Assembly: GCA_964437185.1 (NCBI GenBank)
Contig: CAYTFU010000002.1
Location: forward strand, 41,296 to 105,295
DNA length: 64,000 nucleotides
Direction of reading: 5' to 3'
From: an uncultured Candidatus Saccharibacteria bacterium
GTDB taxonomy: Bacteria; Patescibacteriota; Minisyncoccia; Phycocordibacterales; UBA2100
The notes under the pieces are model-generated. The model saw nothing but the letters and a program-made list of their open reading frames with translations, made no database searches and was not told the DNA's origin. A program made the translations under genes and the position numbers. Below, in pieces: positions 40,273-53,132 of this stretch (position 1 is the stretch's first letter; every line of letters begins with the position of its first letter).

Positions 40273-41564
40273 ATAGAGGACTCGCCGTTATCTCGGTACT
40301 CTGCGTACTGCTGTGCTTACCGTCCAATTCCTTCGCCCAAAATGCGCCTGCCTCAGAGGAGCGCATCAACTCCTTACAATCGCAGATTGACACCCACAAA
40401 TCTGAGATCGAAAAAATTGACCGGGAAATTGCGCAATATCAACAGCAGCTTGACGCTGTCGGGACCAAAAAGAAAACACTTCAAAACACACTTTCGCAGC
40501 TGGATCTTCAGATAAAAAAAGCGACTGCGTCGATAAACGTCACAAAAAATAAAATTAGTGCAACGCAGCTCGAAATTCTCCAGCTTGAGAAGGGAATTGC
40601 AGGCAAAGAAGTTTCTATCGAAACGGGGAACCAGGGCCTGCGAGAGTCCCTGCGTCGACTCAATGAGATTGGAACCAATCCTCTTGCAGTGCAAGTGCTT
40701 TCCTCAATCGACATCTCCGAAGCGTGGGAAGACGCGGACGCTATTCAAGAACTCCAAGTGGCAGTGCGCGATCAAATCGCACGACTCGCTTCGGAGAAAC
40801 AATCACTCACGGAGACAAAAAACCAGACCGAGGCGAAGCGCGCGCAATTGGTGAAGCAAAAGGATACTCTGCTTGCGCAGCAAGGCTCGCTCACGGCTCA
40901 AAAAAAGGCGCAGAACGAGCTTCTCGTTCAGACCAAATCACAGGAATCCACCTACCAATCAATTTTGAAACAAAAACAGGCGGCAAAAGCCACGTTTGAA
41001 GCAGCGCTTGGTGATCTTAAAATCCAGTTCCAGAGAGCTATTAGGCCCTCGGAAATTTTGGCCGCCGGAAAGGGGATATTGCGCTGGCCGCTCGACAACG
41101 TGCGCATCACACAGCAATTTGGAAACACCGCCTTCGCGGCTTCTGGTGCATATAATGGCAAGGGACACAACGGCATCGACCTCGCCGCTCCCGTCGGCAC
41201 ACCGCTGAGAGCGGCTCTTAATGGCGTAGTTTTGGGGACGGGCAACACGGATAGCATAAAGGGCTGCTACTCATTTGGACGGTGGGTGATGATTAAGCAC
41301 CCCAATGGGATCAACACCATGTACTCGCACCTCTCCCAAATCAACGTTGCAGAGGGCCAAAACGTCGATACAGGGCACATAATCGGCTACAGCGGGGAAA
41401 CGGGCTATGCCACAGGCCCACACCTTCACTTCGGCGTGTACGTCAGCTCGGCAACGGCAATCATTCGCCTCGGCGCCGCGAGCAATTCGACCACCCCGTG
41501 CTCAAACGCCGTCATGCCCGTCGCACCCCTATCGGGATACTTAAATCCGATGAATTATCTCTAG
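40269..41564 (+). CDS. M23 family metallopeptidase with N-terminal coiled coil (EnvC-like)
   Basis: signal peptide, long coiled coil, C-terminal LytM domain GHNGIDLAAP...PHLHFGVY. Confidence 0.8.
   Translation: MNRGLAVISVLCVLLCLPSNSFAQNAPASEERINSLQSQIDTHKSEIEKIDREIAQYQQQLDAVGTKKKTLQNTLSQLDLQIKKATASINVTKNKISATQLEILQLEKGIAGKEVSIETGNQGLRESLRRLNEIGTNPLAVQVLSSIDISEAWEDADAIQELQVAVRDQIARLASEKQSLTETKNQTEAKRAQLVKQKDTLLAQQGSLTAQKKAQNELLVQTKSQESTYQSILKQKQAAKATFEAALGDLKIQFQRAIRPSEILAAGKGILRWPLDNVRITQQFGNTAFAASGAYNGKGHNGIDLAAPVGTPLRAALNGVVLGTGNTDSIKGCYSFGRWVMIKHPNGINTMYSHLSQINVAEGQNVDTGHIIGYSGETGYATGPHLHFGVYVSSATAIIRLGAASNSTTPCSNAVMPVAPLSGYLNPMNYL
41520..41564 (+). repeat. M23 gene 3'-end copy 1
   Basis: 45 nt; direct repeat with 41620..41664. 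Confidence 0.75.
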
Positions 41565-47061: not shown

Positions 47062-47202
47062 GTTCGGCGAGCACGGTTCTATATGTCTGATTTATTTGAA
47101 CTCATAGGGACCATGTACGTTGGGGCAGTCGATGTCGTATCTGCGCTTATACCGAGATCTTCGCGAAAATCCGCTGCCCACCCTCTGCGGCTTTACAACA
47201 CA

Positions 47203-48609
47203 ATGAGTGGTGCCATTGAGCTATTTAAGCCACTTCGAAAGGATGCGGTCAAAATGTACAACTGCGGTCCGACTGTCTACGGCAGGCAGCATATCGGCAA
47301 CCTTTCGATGTTTATCTTTACGGATACGCTTCGCAAGGTACTTCTGTACAACCACTTCACCGTTAAGCAGGTCATTAATTTTACCGACTTCGGCCACCTA
47401 TCATCCGACAACGACGAGGGCGAGGACAAAATGACGAAAGGCTTAAAGCGCGAAGGAATGGCGCTTTCTATAGAGAACATGCGCGTGCTCGGAGAGAAGT
47501 ACGCGAATATCTTTCTCGAAGACCTTCGCCAGCTCAACGTTGACGTTGATCACGTTACCTTTCCGCGCGCGAGTGACTTTGTATCCGAGCAAATAGCGAT
47601 GATCCGAACCCTGGAAGAAAAGGGCTACACCTACCAGTCGCACGGGTGCGTGTATTTTGATACTTCCCTCTTACCGGACTATGGCAAGCTCGGCAATATC
47701 AATCTGGAGGGATTAATATCGGGCGCTCGCGTCAAAGATAGCCACAAAAAACACCCCACGGATTTTTTGCTCTGGAAAGCGAGTAGGCGCGTGGGATGGA
47801 TGAGCCCGTGGGGCAAAGGATTTCCCGGGTGGCACATTGAGTGCTCTGCGATGATTAGAGCGACGCTCGGCACTCAAATCGATATTCATACGGGGGGAAT
47901 CGAGCACATACCCATCCATCACAACAACGAAATAGCGCAATCTGAATCTGCGACCGGCAAAAAACCCTTTGCTCAGTATTGGCTGCACCGCGCGCATATT
48001 CAACTCGAGGGTTCAAAAATTGCGAAATCTGGCGGCAACGTTATTTACCTCAGCGATGTTATCGAGCGCGGTTTTCACCCACTTGCACTTCGCTACCTTT
48101 TTTTGACCGCTCATTACCGCACTCCCTCAAACTTTACTTGGGAAGCACTCGGGGCCGCTCAAACCGCGTTCGCGAAGCTCGTCGGCTTCCGATTGTCACT
48201 CGCAGACGCTGAAAAAGACGCTGTATCAACCCATTGGAGATCGGCATTTGTGAGTCGACTTAACGACGATCTCGAAACTCCGGCAGCCATCGCGGTGGTA
48301 TGGGAAATGGTTTCGGATAAGTTGCTTAGTAGTGCACAAAAACTTGCTACGCTCCTTGACTTTGATTCTGTACTTGGGCTTAACCTCGCGGAACCCGATG
48401 AGCACGCTCTCCGGCTCGCGCGTGAACACACGAGAGAAGAGGTAGTGGCCGGCGATCTACCCGACGCTATCGCCCACCTCGTCAGAGAGCGCGAAGAGGC
48501 GCGAGATGCGAAAGATTGGTCCAGGGCAGATGAACTGCGGATCCGAATTCAGTCCGAAGGATACGCGCTCGAAGACAAAGATGGCGCTACAAAAATACTC
48601 AAAATCTAG
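47203..48609 (+). CDS. cysS: cysteinyl-tRNA synthetase
   Basis: MYNCGPTVYGRQHIGN (HIGH), KIAKSGGN (KMSKS variant), Zn ligand Cys; start ATG 47203. Confidence 0.9.
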   Translation: MSGAIELFKPLRKDAVKMYNCGPTVYGRQHIGNLSMFIFTDTLRKVLLYNHFTVKQVINFTDFGHLSSDNDEGEDKMTKGLKREGMALSIENMRVLGEKYANIFLEDLRQLNVDVDHVTFPRASDFVSEQIAMIRTLEEKGYTYQSHGCVYFDTSLLPDYGKLGNINLEGLISGARVKDSHKKHPTDFLLWKASRRVGWMSPWGKGFPGWHIECSAMIRATLGTQIDIHTGGIEHIPIHHNNEIAQSESATGKKPFAQYWLHRAHIQLEGSKIAKSGGNVIYLSDVIERGFHPLALRYLFLTAHYRTPSNFTWEALGAAQTAFAKLVGFRLSLADAEKDAVSTHWRSAFVSRLNDDLETPAAIAVVWEMVSDKLLSSAQKLATLLDFDSVLGLNLAEPDEHALRLAREHTREEVVAGDLPDAIAHLVREREEARDAKDWSRADELRIRIQSEGYALEDKDGATKILKI

Positions 48610-48614
48610 CCTTC

Positions 48615-51600
48615 TTATTCCTTCACAACGAAATTGACCAAGCGGCCTGGCACGAGGATAGTACGTACAATTTCTCTTCCAGCAACGCGCTCGCTCACTG
48701 CCTTCCTCGCTTCCCCTTCTATTGCTGTCTTATCCGCATCAGACGCAACATCGATCTGCGCGCGTGTTTTGCCGTTGACTTGCACTGCAATTGTCATCGT
48801 CTCAGATTTAAGATATTCCGCTTTGTAAACGGGCCACGTTTGTAAGTGGACGGACGACTTGTGGCGCTCCGACCAGAGTTCTTCCGCCATGTGAGGGGCA
48901 AACGGCGCCAGGATTTTCAAGAACGTGTCCCACTGTACTGCGCCAATTTTACCCTCTGACTCAATGGCATTGAGTAGTATCATGAGCTGACTAATGGCGG
49001 TGTTAAATTTTAGCGCCGCGATGTCCTCCCCTACTTTCTTTATCGCTTTGTGCAGAACATTCTGGAGCGCATCAACCTCCCCTTTCGCAACCATAAACTG
49101 GATTTTCCACGCACGCTCCAAAAATCGCCTCACCCCCACCACCCCATCGGGATTCCATGGATAGCTCGACACTTCGTTGTATGGCCCGATAAACGCGAGA
49201 TACATGCGCACCGTATCCGATCCGAGCTGCGCGACTACGGCATCTGGATCGATCACATTCCCGCGTGATTTACTCATCTTTTGACCGTCGGGGCCCATGA
49301 TGAGGGATCGGTTCATGCGACGCGTATACGGCTCTTTGTCTTTCACCAAGCCGAGATCGTACATGGCCTTCTGCCAAAAACGGCTATACAGCACGTGCAT
49401 AGTCGTATGTTCAGCGCCTCCCGAATACAAATCTATCGGCATCCACTTCGCAAGTTTTTTCGGATCTGCAAATTTCGATCTGTTTTTTGGATCACAGTAG
49501 CGCAAAAAATACCACGAAGAGTCTATGAATGTATCGAACGTATCAGTCTCTCGCTCCGCCGGCTTTTTACATTGCGGGCACTTTACCTTCACCCACTTCG
49601 TAGCCTTCGCAAGCGGCGACTTGCCACTCCCCTCCGGTAGATAGTCTTTGACCTCCGGCAACTTCACAGGCAAATCTTTATTCGGCACCGCGACAGGCCC
49701 GCACACGGCGCAGTGAATAATCGGTATGGGCACTCCCCAATATCTCTGACGCGACACGATCCAGTCACGAAGTTTGTAAGTCGTCTTTACTCGTCCATAC
49801 TTTGCCGTAATTCTTCCGATTGCTTCGCGATTCATGAGGCCAGTAAACTCTCCGGAGTCAACAAGTATTCCCTCCTCTGTATATGGCTGGTATCCGGTCA
49901 CGCGCTTCCAAGCAATCATCACATCGGGACGATTGATAAACCGAGAAAATTCTTCGGGCCCGTACCAACCCACATCATGACGTGACTTTTCGTGCTCGGA
50001 AACAATATCTTGCTCGCCGTTTTCTAGACTGTACAAAAGCGGCGTAAAATCTACGAGACGATTTACCTTTTTCTCTACGCTGTAATATTTTCCCCATATA
50101 TGACCGCCGAGAGATCGCACAAGCTTTGCGCTCCGATATCCAGTCTCCTCGCGAATTTCGCGTATGCCAGCCTCCACGGCATCTTCTCCTTCTTCAATAC
50201 CACCCGAGACGCACTCATTGACCTTCGTCGGTTTGAAGTGCACTCCGAGGTATTTGTCCTCCGACCAGTGCTTTACAATCGCAAACACAGATTTTCGGCG
50301 CTCAAGCGGTTCTCCTTCGCGTACCGCATCAAGCCCGCCCTTGAAAAGCGAGAGTGGTTCAACCACCTCCTTAATTGGTAGTTTAAACTTAGTAGCAAAC
50401 TCATGGTCGCGCTCGTCGTGCGCAGGGACTGCCATAATCGCGCCTGTACCGTAGTGGGCAAGCACATAATCTGCTATCCAAACGGGGATCTTCTCTCCTG
50501 TCGCCGGATTGATGGCTCTCACACCCTTCAACTCCACTCCCGTTTTCTCTTTCTGGTCTGCCATCCTCTCCAGCTCCGTCTTTCGCTTTGATGCCTCAAC
50601 GTATGTTTTTATTTCGTCAGCGTTTGCGCACAGACCACTCCGTATAAAATCCGAGACCCAACGGTGCTCAGGAGCCAATACCAGGTACGTCGCGCCGAAA
50701 AGCGTGTCCGCGCGCGTGGTAAAGACTCGCATAGTAGGCCTGAGCCACATAAGCACGTCTGGCTCAGTGTCACCTGTAAAGTGCGTCGCATTCGATACAC
50801 CTAGCTCAACGCGCGTACCGAGCAAATCCGCAAGGGCTTGCGCCTGTTGATCTGAGATGGCGTGATCGCGTGGATCGTGCAAAACCGTAAATGAACCAAC
50901 GTTTCGCTTAATAGCTTCAGAATCAAATTTCCACGACCACGTTTTTTCAAACAGTCTCTTTTTGTCTTTAAACTTCGTATCCACAAAGCCCCCGATGGTT
51001 ACCAGCCGCGCAACGGGCTTCGTAAGTTGCTCCGCCACTTTGAGCGCGAGCACGGCCCCGAGACTGTGGCCAACGATCACAGTGCGTTCATCGTACGTCG
51101 TCGCGCTTATTGCGTACTCGACCTGCTCGCGCTCCGTGGGATTATCAGTGTTGGGAAGGCGCGGAATAACTACTTCGTGACCCATTTTTTCCAGCTCCGC
51201 CTTCACCCACTTCCACCGCGGCGCATCAGGAGTTCCGCCAAATCCGTGAAAAATCACAAACTTGTACTTCTGACCAAGATCGAGGACAAAATCTATCTCG
51301 GCTCCTTCACTTCGACCAATCCAATTTCTCTGAGATTCTTTGATCTGCTCCGGCCAGTCCAGTCCATCGAGGTCGTCGATCAGTCGGTCTGCATAATCAG
51401 TAATCTTTATATTCCACTGCAACATTTTCCTCTGCACGACTTCGCTGTCGCATCGCTCACATCTTCCAGAAACCACTTGTTCATTTGCGAGTACCGTCTT
51501 GTCCTTCGGGCACCAGTTTACCGCGGTCTCTTTACGATATGCGAGCCCCTTTTTGAAAAATTCGAGAAAAAGCCATTGCGTCCATTTGTAGTACGCCGGA

Positions 51601-51986
51601 TCACACGTAATCACTTCTCTCGACCAATCAAAGGATGTGCCCATGGAGCGGATCTGCTTCTTCATGAACTCGATATTCCTGTACGTCCATGTACGCGGAT
51701 TTATGTTGTTCTTTATGGCAGCGTTTTCGGCGGGCAAACCAAACGCATCGAAGCCGATCGGATAAAGCACATTTTTCCCCTGCATCCGCTCCGCGCGCGC
51801 AAAAATATCTGGTACAGCAAATGCGTACCAGTGACCGACGTGCAGATTTCCCGAGGGGTATGGAAACTCGACGAGTAGGTAGGAATTTTTCTTCCCTTTT
51901 ACTGAATCTCGGGTCCTGTAAAGTTTCGATTTATCCCATCGCGCTTGCCACTTTCGTTCAATTGCCCGATGATCATATTTTTTCAT
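48615..51986 (-). CDS. leuS: leucyl-tRNA synthetase with two inserted hydrolase domains (Ser alpha/beta-hydrolase and Nudix), 1123 aa
   Basis: HVGH and QKMSKS, editing TTRADTLFGATYLVLAPEH / AHDERDHEF; extra GHSLG hydrolase (aa ~236-415) and GX5EX7REUXEEXGU Nudix box (aa ~596-618). Confidence 0.9.
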   Translation of the reverse strand: MKKYDHRAIERKWQARWDKSKLYRTRDSVKGKKNSYLLVEFPYPSGNLHVGHWYAFAVPDIFARAERMQGKNVLYPIGFDAFGLPAENAAIKNNINPRTWTYRNIEFMKKQIRSMGTSFDWSREVITCDPAYYKWTQWLFLEFFKKGLAYRKETAVNWCPKDKTVLANEQVVSGRCERCDSEVVQRKMLQWNIKITDYADRLIDDLDGLDWPEQIKESQRNWIGRSEGAEIDFVLDLGQKYKFVIFHGFGGTPDAPRWKWVKAELEKMGHEVVIPRLPNTDNPTEREQVEYAISATTYDERTVIVGHSLGAVLALKVAEQLTKPVARLVTIGGFVDTKFKDKKRLFEKTWSWKFDSEAIKRNVGSFTVLHDPRDHAISDQQAQALADLLGTRVELGVSNATHFTGDTEPDVLMWLRPTMRVFTTRADTLFGATYLVLAPEHRWVSDFIRSGLCANADEIKTYVEASKRKTELERMADQKEKTGVELKGVRAINPATGEKIPVWIADYVLAHYGTGAIMAVPAHDERDHEFATKFKLPIKEVVEPLSLFKGGLDAVREGEPLERRKSVFAIVKHWSEDKYLGVHFKPTKVNECVSGGIEEGEDAVEAGIREIREETGYRSAKLVRSLGGHIWGKYYSVEKKVNRLVDFTPLLYSLENGEQDIVSEHEKSRHDVGWYGPEEFSRFINRPDVMIAWKRVTGYQPYTEEGILVDSGEFTGLMNREAIGRITAKYGRVKTTYKLRDWIVSRQRYWGVPIPIIHCAVCGPVAVPNKDLPVKLPEVKDYLPEGSGKSPLAKATKWVKVKCPQCKKPAERETDTFDTFIDSSWYFLRYCDPKNRSKFADPKKLAKWMPIDLYSGGAEHTTMHVLYSRFWQKAMYDLGLVKDKEPYTRRMNRSLIMGPDGQKMSKSRGNVIDPDAVVAQLGSDTVRMYLAFIGPYNEVSSYPWNPDGVVGVRRFLERAWKIQFMVAKGEVDALQNVLHKAIKKVGEDIAALKFNTAISQLMILLNAIESEGKIGAVQWDTFLKILAPFAPHMAEELWSERHKSSVHLQTWPVYKAEYLKSETMTIAVQVNGKTRAQIDVASDADKTAIEGEARKAVSERVAGREIVRTILVPGRLVNFVVKE

Positions 51987-52166: not shown

Positions 52167-53132
52167 TTACAAATTCTTCATTTTAGAGTACGGAGGGTAC
52201 CGCTCCGGGTCTATGGTACGTTCAAAACATACTCGGCCTGCGGCATGATGCCATACGTCGTTTTCAAGGCTCGCTGCCTTCCCCTCAATCATCGGTGCTG
52301 AGACTGGGCGCGCTCCCATGTAACTATTCAACTGACCCTCGGCATTGAACACTGCGCAGAGCTCGAAGATCATGCTACCTTTTGCCGAGTACTCATAACT
52401 TTCTCCCGTCTGCGGGTCGCGCGGTACAATTGTGCCGCTGATAGGATCGTGCAGGTCGCTAAGTAACGAGGGCATTCTTTCTTTACTCTGCCAGTAATTT
52501 ACGATCATGGATTGTATCGAGACAAGATCATTCAACTTCTGATCATCAAGACGCTGCAAGCGAGCCTGAGCCGGAGATCCTACAATAAAGAAACCAGCGA
52601 TAACAGTGCAGAAAACCAGAAGCAACGTAGCGACACTGACATAGCGATTGCGCTCAGGGTACTCACTCCAGTAGTTCCAAATATCTGCCAAGAAGTGCAT
52701 GAGGCCAACCGCGGCCACGAGCAGCACAACGAGCGCCTTAAGAATAAACCGAGTCGTTATCTCTTCTCCATTCAGAAATGTATAAAGAACAAAAATCAAA
52801 TCACCGACAATCGCGGCGCCGGCTACGAATACGGTCAGGTAGAGCGCCCACCTACGAACCCATATCTCCTTACGTGACTGATCCTTTCTCATATCGCGGC
52901 GTATGAGGTACATCAGCGCCAAAAAGGCTGGAGTGAGGACAATAAGTGCAGCCATCTCCCAGCTTATCCCGCTCTGGTACGGGTCCGAGGGATAGTAATC
53001 CAGAGGATCCGGCATTGCATAATCCACGTAGTTCCACACGAGCGCGATGTAATTAAAAACCGCCACGTAGAGCGCTATAACAGCCCCGGCCCACAGGAAG
53101 AAATCCTTTGGTGTTACTTTTGAGGTATTCAT
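52167..53132 (-). CDS. hypothetical polytopic membrane protein (DUF5671-like)
   Basis: multiple TM helices followed by soluble C-terminal domain; architecture typical of DUF5671 proteins. Confidence 0.5.
   Translation of the reverse strand: MNTSKVTPKDFFLWAGAVIALYVAVFNYIALVWNYVDYAMPDPLDYYPSDPYQSGISWEMAALIVLTPAFLALMYLIRRDMRKDQSRKEIWVRRWALYLTVFVAGAAIVGDLIFVLYTFLNGEEITTRFILKALVVLLVAAVGLMHFLADIWNYWSEYPERNRYVSVATLLLVFCTVIAGFFIVGSPAQARLQRLDDQKLNDLVSIQSMIVNYWQSKERMPSLLSDLHDPISGTIVPRDPQTGESYEYSAKGSMIFELCAVFNAEGQLNSYMGARPVSAPMIEGKAASLENDVWHHAAGRVCFERTIDPERYPPYSKMKNL

Follow-up and report, generated by a model that had tools for sequence, protein, structure and literature searches.

A Nudix hydrolase domain nested within the editing domain of leucyl-tRNA synthetase in Patescibacteria

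Aminoacyl-tRNA synthetases are among the most conserved enzymes, and the extra domains that they carry in bacteria are usually RNA-binding or editing modules rather than metabolic enzymes of unrelated origin set within the editing domain. Nudix hydrolases, leucyl-tRNA synthetase (LeuRS, encoded by leuS; LeuS in the database records) and synthetases with additional domains are all already known, an example of the last being NCBIfam NF040702 (ileS_w_GNAT), a curated exception family in which a class Ia enzyme, isoleucyl-tRNA synthetase, has an unrelated N-acetyltransferase domain added to it. House-cleaning enzymes of the Nudix, Ham1/ITPase/RdgB and HAD types are normally separate small proteins, whereas in Patescibacteria domains of the same functional class occur as in-frame inserts in LeuS. 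Here we analyse one such leuS gene, found in a 64,000-nucleotide stretch of DNA (the window; positions 41,296 to 105,295 of contig CAYTFU010000002.1, assembly GCA_964437185.1) from an ultra-small, Kaiserbacteria-like bacterium recorded as an uncultured Candidatus Saccharibacteria bacterium. We conclude that its product probably contains an autonomously folding, catalytically competent Nudix enzyme in a surface loop of connective polypeptide 1 (CP1), the editing domain, of a working LeuRS, and that it is one case of an accumulation of hydrolase domains across the Patescibacteria. The protein differs from ileS_w_GNAT both in the synthetase and in the passenger domain, and at 77.1 bits against a cut-off of 1999 it is not a member of that family; no curated model for a LeuS with a Nudix domain turned up in the NCBIfam scans.

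The leuS gene is a single uninterrupted reading frame of 1123 codons plus a stop, with an ATG start (48615..51986, reverse strand, as for all features of the gene given below), and encodes a complete bacterial-type LeuRS with two nested hydrolase domains. The product matches TIGR00396 (leuS_bact) with 949.9 bits against a cut-off of 548.4, and is matched by the Thermus thermophilus LeuRS sequence (1h3n) with E = 3e-222 in phmmer. HMMER aligns the two proteins in four blocks (query 1-236 with T. thermophilus 1-237, 419-543 with 243-363, 701-898 with 376-579, and 903-1122 with 637-877), which leaves two large inserts, aa 237-418 in place of T. thermophilus 238-242 and aa 544-700 in place of 364-375. 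The catalytic core, the HIGH and KMSKS motifs, CP1 with both of its editing motifs, and the anticodon-binding and C-terminal domains are shared with the T. thermophilus and Escherichia coli (4aq7) enzymes, whereas the enzyme domains of 182 and 157 aa inside CP1, which replace 5 and about 12 residues respectively, are not. Unlike T. thermophilus LeuRS, the query also lacks the leucine-specific domain, T. thermophilus residues 580-636 being replaced by approximately five residues (aa 898-902, window positions of about 49281-49295) directly before KMSKS.

The second insert (aa 544-700, 157 aa; 49887..50357) is identified as a Nudix hydrolase domain by Pfam, motif and fold. Its Nudix box, GGIEEGEDAVEAGIREIREETGY (aa 595-617, 23 residues; 50136..50204), contains the metal-binding and catalytic glutamates E610, E613 and E614, fits the GX5EX7REUXEEXGU signature exactly, and is the sole strict match among the 667 six-frame open reading frames (ORFs) of at least 50 aa in the window. 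The Pfam NUDIX model (PF00293) matches aa 591-684 at E = 3.7e-8, with 33.9 bits against a gathering score of 21.1, and extends past the box to cover model positions 32-124 of 134; relatives of the domain reach 35-56 bits. When the isolated domain (aa 541-706) was modelled with AlphaFold2 from a 45-sequence alignment, the mean predicted local distance difference test score (pLDDT) was 95.1 and the predicted template modelling score (pTM) 0.89, and the predicted structure has the alpha/beta/alpha sandwich of the Nudix fold. A Foldseek search with this model returned 539 chains in the PDB at E <= 0.001, of which the 50 best listed are all Nudix proteins. A preliminary description of this DNA, made from its letters and open reading frames, had proposed a canonical Nudix domain with a perfect Nudix box in an insert of about 160 aa, placed at 49896-50309 (aa 560-697). 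The hidden Markov model (HMM), the motif and the predicted fold all bear this out, and the measured length is close to the estimate.

The same description had put the domain between the editing domain and the KMSKS half of the enzyme, and here a correction is needed. The insert lies approximately 17 residues past the editing motif AHDERD (aa 522-527), and it interrupts the match to the Pfam editing-domain model PF13603 at about model position 142 of 185. In-silico excision of aa 238-417 and 545-699 gives a protein of 788 aa in which PF13603 matches positions 1-183 of 185 without a break, at 200.9 bits as against 186.6 bits for the intact product. Since removal of the two inserts restores a single contiguous match, both are nested within CP1. 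The Nudix domain therefore sits inside the editing domain itself, and it differs from free-standing Nudix hydrolases in having no termini of its own, being covalently embedded in the editing domain of another enzyme, and in being at most 22% identical to any solved Nudix structure. In the full-length AlphaFold2 model (mean pLDDT 86.0, pTM 0.69) the Nudix region has pLDDT values of 88-95 and exactly the secondary structure that it has when modelled alone. Confidence is also high at the junctions, and both inserts are predicted to be well-folded autonomous domains.

The LeuRS part of the protein looks functional, as judged from its signature motifs. The N-terminal half of the catalytic (Rossmann) domain (aa 1-236; 51279..51986) contains the HIGH motif as HVGH (aa 49-52; 51831-51842), of which H49 and G51 are invariant in 74 orthologues, as is KMSKS (aa 903-907; 49266-49280). 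Both editing motifs lie in the first part of CP1 (aa 419-543; 50358..50732), which covers PF13603 positions 22-142: the threonine-rich TTRADT at aa 423-428 (50703-50720) and the editing-site HDERD at aa 523-527 (50406-50420). The TTRxDT and HDxRD residues are 98-100% conserved. The remainder of CP1, the second catalytic half and the anticodon-binding and C-terminal domains (aa 701-1123; 48618..49886) follow from the 1h3n alignment and a match to Pfam Anticodon_1.

The length of the protein is unusual and metagenome-assembled genomes (MAGs) can be chimeric, so that an assembly chimera, a frameshift read-through or an intein-like or mobile element in leuS has to be considered. A 100%-identical protein (P0002) is present in NCBI, ENA and Logan, on three to four contigs that reach 250 kb, and an independent Logan assembly has matching gene order. 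We collected the 120 best relatives from a full-length search, which are 59-75% identical to the query where full-length, approximately 950-1160 aa long, and mostly labelled Candidatus Kaiserbacteria, Paceibacterota or Parcubacteria. In the resulting 121-sequence alignment (query included) 111 sequences have both inserts, three the Nudix domain only and seven the other insert, an alpha/beta-hydrolase, only. A one-genome-per-species scan for relatives of the domain, built from 10 closer sequences, gave at least 147 stretches, and in 78 of the best 80 loci, which were examined, the Nudix domain lies in LeuS or a LeuS-derived ORF; a complete, closed Kaiserbacteria chromosome (CP066682.1) is among the loci with a nested Nudix. 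Within the query, GC content across the Nudix insert is 0.48-0.53, like that of the flanks, and the catalytic residues are under protein-level selection. There is no Hint or intein family among the Pfam matches of the leuS product, and the junctions VVEP-LSL (P544-L545) and TGYQ-PYTEEG (Q700-P701) lack the Cys/Ser and His-Asn-Cys/Ser/Thr residues of protein splicing. The comparative data thus already refute an artefactual origin, to which we assign a virtually nil probability. The worry over an artefact raised in the preliminary description is cleared by the independent assemblies and by more than 100 diverged orthologue clusters of the same architecture, and the comparison with sister genomes that it proposed gave the 111 sequences (query included) with both inserts.

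The nested Nudix is found in LeuS of Kaiser-, Vogel-, Nomura-, Taylor-, Adler-, Moran- and Gracilibacteria and of Saccharimonadales, together with a few MAGs labelled Bacilli or Clostridia, and the sequences indicate that the architecture is inherited across the Patescibacteria, or candidate phyla radiation (CPR). At the Gracilibacteria locus (L070; 2315-5767, forward strand) leuS is broken into four fragments under translation table 11, and reads as one 1151-aa LeuS with alpha/beta-hydrolase and Nudix domains under genetic code 25, in which UGA encodes glycine. The architecture therefore reaches Gracilibacteria, and gene calls made with table 11 fragment leuS in the databases. Seven loci (L053, L054 and L073-L077) encode LeuS proteins of approximately 940-948 aa with a Nudix domain at the same CP1 site as in the query, in MAGs labelled Bacillota, Clostridia or Bacilli, several of them from rabbit gut; these are either mislabelled Patescibacteria bins or cases of transfer of this type of leuS beyond the CPR.

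Conservation within the domain was analysed in the 114 Nudix-bearing orthologues of the 121-sequence alignment, and in a wider set of 145 Nudix copies from every LeuS insertion site and from free-standing genes. The Nudix domain is the fastest-evolving part of the protein: mean pairwise identity among orthologues is 43% here, whereas the editing domain reaches 67% and the catalytic core 74-80%. Against this background G595, E610, E613, E614, G616, L654 and E666 are invariant in the 114 orthologues, and R609 (98%), E601 (96%), W674 (99%), R564 (97%) and N642 (96%) are nearly so; in the 145 copies E610, E613 and E614 are conserved at 99%, 97% and 100%, respectively. Since the catalytic residues are fixed while the domain as a whole is only 43% identical, the pattern indicates strong purifying selection on catalysis, which argues against a purely structural role, and from its sequence the nested Nudix is very probably an active pyrophosphohydrolase. 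E666 (49989..49991), a glutamate downstream of the box that is E in 90% and D in 6% of the 145 copies, is a candidate for an additional metal ligand or general base.

Several observations nevertheless weigh against this reading. The closest structural neighbour of the modelled domain is an uncharacterised protein, Enterococcus faecalis Q836H1 (PDB 2azw). No NCBIfam Nudix subfamily model was reached by any of 45 inserts scanned, all matches being far under cut-off and made mainly via the box. The aromatic pair Y634-Y635 (50082..50087), which lies in the X-loop region 17-18 residues past the Nudix box, is not conserved as tyrosine across the family: position 634 is F in 61% and Y in 39% of the 114 orthologues (68% and 27% of the 145 copies), and position 635 is Y in 68% and F in 28% (49% and 42%). 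Finally, in a subclade of nested and free-standing members (for example P0137, P0134, P0124 copy 2, P0136 and P0154) the box reads GGxExGQ...[T/A/M]EIxEETGY, so that a change of E601 to Q is correlated with a change of R609 to A, T or M while the three metal-binding glutamates are retained. This correlation suggests that the two residues are a co-evolving pair and that catalysis is possibly altered in those relatives.

The loss of E601 and R609 in that subclade would also fit a non-catalytic Nudix fold, recruited for structure, for tRNA binding or for regulatory ligand sensing in the manner of CFIm25 or NrtR. Nudix-fold proteins without an enzymatic role do exist (PMC5389931). In the query's own clade, however, the box residues for metal binding and catalysis are 96-100% conserved while the rest of the domain drifts, and the glutamates E610, E613 and E614 are kept in nearly all copies from all sites. 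We therefore regard a non-catalytic role as very improbable.

We next considered the substrate. The X-loop helps to set the substrate specificity of Nudix enzymes; a tyrosine approximately 17 residues after the box (Dunn 1999) marks ApnA hydrolases, a proline approximately 15-16 residues after it marks ADP-ribose pyrophosphatases, and the sequence SQPWPFPxS following it marks NADH pyrophosphatases (PMC5389931). The ADP-ribose marker is absent, since positions 632/633 are G/K in the query and mostly S/K in the family, and SQPWPFPxS was not found in aa 618-700. The structural neighbours that follow 2azw are the ApnA and Ap6A hydrolases Rv2985 (9cxx), Ndx1 (1vc8) and Aquifex aeolicus 3i7u, together with DIPP/DDP1. 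In a phmmer search against PDB sequences only box-level matches were obtained, the best of them to the Ap4A hydrolase 1f3y (E = 8e-5 across 34 residues), which we rejected as a functional guide because 34 residues is too short. The domain would be expected to act as a Mg2+-dependent pyrophosphohydrolase on a nucleotide-type polyphosphate, and candidate substrates may include dinucleoside polyphosphates (Ap4A-Ap6A) or non-canonical nucleoside triphosphates. An aminoacyl-adenylate is an acyl-phosphate and not a nucleoside diphosphate linked to another moiety, X, the linkage on which established Nudix chemistry acts; because it lacks the diphosphate linkage, it is an unlikely substrate.

A further possibility is that the Nudix is directed at the 5' ends of RNA, either RppH-like or decapping NAD- or Np4N-capped RNA, with LeuRS serving as an RNA-binding platform. 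RppH models are the most consistent of the sub-threshold NCBIfam matches, NF001938 (RppH) being matched by all 45 inserts, and the fold neighbours include RppH, AvrM14 and decapping Nudix effectors of oomycetes. The best of these matches for the query is nevertheless 25.6 bits against a cut-off of 116, over the box region only. Moreover, mature tRNA-Leu has a 5' monophosphate, and for this reason the RNA bound by LeuRS offers no obvious substrate. An RNA-directed function thus seems improbable to us.

To place the domain in a wider family, the Nudix insert was used in an exhaustive HMMER search of 1.84 billion representative sequences, which gave 289 matches at E <= 0.001, and the best 150 of these were classed by block HMMs; a word-indexed homology search with the insert alone had returned one fragment only (P0001). 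LeuS or fragments of it make up 108 of the best 150 of the 289 relatives. Another 31 are short proteins (<215 aa) with a Nudix domain only, about half of them apparently complete free-standing genes and the others fragments, and the remaining 11 are longer Nudix-only proteins; no host enzyme other than LeuS was seen among these 150. Ten of the 11 longer proteins were put through Pfam, and five have a fragment of the editing domain at the Pfam cut-off. The same Nudix subfamily is found at no fewer than four sites in LeuS: in the N-terminal half of the catalytic domain, close to query aa 208 (site A); at the junction of the catalytic domain and CP1, where the query has its alpha/beta-hydrolase (site B); at the query's own Nudix site, by far the commonest (site C); and in the region after CP1 (site D).

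Up to three copies occur in a single protein. P0123, P0124, L025 (1559 aa), L037 (1735 aa) and L028 (1390 aa) are LeuS proteins with two or three Nudix copies at up to three sites, and such multi-copy proteins often have the alpha/beta-hydrolase as well; L037, from a Taylorbacteria MAG, combines three Nudix domains with an alpha/beta-hydrolase and also has an unexplained insert of approximately 200 aa (aa 1193-1400). The copies of a single LeuS are only 20-48% identical to each other (mean 34%), whereas each has a relative of 31-77% identity (mostly 50-77%) in another species. That relative generally occupies the same site but sometimes a different one; L037 copy 1 at site A, for example, is 75% identical to the site C copy of L064. 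A recent tandem duplication within the gene was accordingly rejected as the origin of the multiple copies. Because the closest relative of each copy sits in another species, the sequences are better read as the product of several old, independent captures, with occasional relocation, than of internal duplication. In a neighbour-joining tree, which is without support values and has deep branches, the free-standing Nudix genes are interspersed with the nested copies.

Nudix domains are not the only hydrolases nested in these synthetases. A Ham1/ITPase domain lies at aa 247-378 of P0160 and at aa 984-1167 of P0163 (E = 3e-58), and a HAD phosphatase at aa 385-539 of P0164 and aa 654-808 of P0229. 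Further inserts of approximately 210 aa are present at the junction of the catalytic domain and CP1 in P0270, P0179, L065 and L067. It would thus appear that the connective-polypeptide region of LeuRS has repeatedly captured small hydrolases (Nudix, alpha/beta-hydrolase, Ham1/ITPase and HAD) across the lineage. The nested Nudix would probably act as a house-cleaning module held at a fixed 1:1 stoichiometry with an essential, constitutively expressed enzyme.

The family data also bear on whether the Nudix is coupled to the chemistry of LeuRS, such that it clears Ap4A and other Np4N, formed in a side reaction of leucyl-adenylate with ATP, or some other by-product, near to its source; clearance of Ap4A was first suggested in the preliminary description. 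The predominance of LeuS among the best 150 relatives points in this direction, and without some selective link it would be difficult to account for the entry of the domain into LeuS at four or more sites, with as many as three copies in one protein. ApnA and Ap6A hydrolases stand high among the structural neighbours, and the query has Tyr-Tyr in its X-loop, at the position of the ApnA marker. However, unrelated alpha/beta-hydrolase, Ham1/ITPase and HAD domains share the LeuS sites, which is better explained if LeuRS is an insertion-tolerant carrier. The copies within one LeuS are old, divergent paralogues, which suggests several specificities, and neither the RppH nor the ApnA models give a subfamily-level match. 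To our knowledge, LeuRS is also not among the strongest producers of Ap4A, which we count against coupling. Taken together, we consider coupling to be rather unlikely; it can hold as a refinement of the view that the domain is an autonomous, competent enzyme. More broadly, we offer only tentatively the reading that LeuRS has in this Nudix subfamily a dedicated partner, which leuS, almost to the exclusion of other genes, has acquired in independent events at four or more sites and in up to three divergent copies because its reaction is tied to leucylation or editing. That reaction could be the hydrolysis of Ap4A or Np4N, or of some other nucleotide by-product or signal arising at the synthetase.

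What appears to be new here is the nesting of an enzyme in the editing domain of LeuRS and the combinatorial multi-site, multi-copy family around it. No description of a Nudix, Ham1 or HAD domain inside LeuRS was found in the open-access PMC and bioRxiv literature, subscription journals being outside that scope, and in a large review of the Nudix clan the terms 'tRNA synthetase' and 'tRNA ligase' never occur (PMC5389931). The LeuRS of Patescibacteria emerges as a carrier for one to five extra hydrolase domains, in proteins of up to 1735 aa, with catalytic residues preserved. If the modules act independently, this would represent a striking economy of genes and regulation in the reduced genomes of ultra-small, host-dependent bacteria, and would provide a natural map of insertion-tolerant sites in LeuRS that could be of use in protein engineering. 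If they are coupled to the synthetase, they would connect translation with nucleotide or alarmone housekeeping in a new way and provide a testable system for the debated role of synthetase-made Ap4A. Should the dedicated-partner reading be true, the Nudix would represent a new class of accessory activity that serves an aminoacyl-tRNA synthetase in cis, and LeuRS with its Nudix, ITPase, HAD and serine-hydrolase modules would be a multi-enzyme hub for nucleotide quality control. There is also a consequence for annotation, as Nudix-bearing LeuS proteins are named inconsistently in public records, where they appear as 'alpha/beta fold hydrolase', 'NUDIX domain-containing protein', 'class I tRNA ligase family protein' or 'hypothetical protein'.

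The first insert of the query (aa 237-418; 50733..51278), at the start of CP1, is an alpha/beta-hydrolase of the Ser_hydrolase-like type, matched above cut-off by Abhydrolase_1, Abhydrolase_6 and Ser_hydrolase. Its candidate catalytic triad is highly conserved (S308 100%, D371 98%, H402 100%), and in the full-length AlphaFold2 model its pLDDT is 92-96 over most of the domain and 89 in three 10-residue blocks. The three-enzyme LeuS envisaged in the preliminary description, LeuRS with a Nudix and a serine hydrolase, thus stands for the query at the level of sequence; the wider pattern of Nudix, Ham1, HAD and alpha/beta-hydrolase domains at multiple sites was not covered by it. In other species the same alpha/beta-hydrolase occurs at another LeuS site, after CP1 (site D), and P0222 has two copies of it in tandem.

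Stand-alone proteins of approximately 270-290 aa (L072 3680-4540 and L080 3623-4519, both on the forward strand, and P0196, P0208, P0262 and P0263), from MAGs of 25-27% GC labelled Clostridia, join the C-terminal part of the CP1 editing domain to a Nudix of the subfamily. Recoding of UGA was rejected as their cause, translation with table 4 leaving them unchanged, and they appear to be real stand-alone proteins that look like pieces excised from a Nudix-bearing LeuS. At L080 two further Nudix ORFs lie nearby. At L062 (669-3433, forward strand) a free-standing Nudix of the subfamily ends a same-strand run of genes for a CYTH protein, an unnamed ORF, a HAD protein and a low-molecular-weight (LMW) phosphatase. 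The HAD of this run was considered as a source of the LeuS-nested HAD and rejected, as it is 21% identical without a specific relationship, and no leuS was found beside the free-standing Nudix gene at L062 or L068.

In the window, leuS is convergent with cysS (508 aa, tRNA-synt_1e; 47083-48609, forward strand), the stop codons of the two genes being 5 bp apart, and a gene for a DUF5671 membrane protein (52167-53132, reverse strand) lies upstream of leuS. The order cysS, leuS, DUF5671 is also present in the independent Logan assembly.

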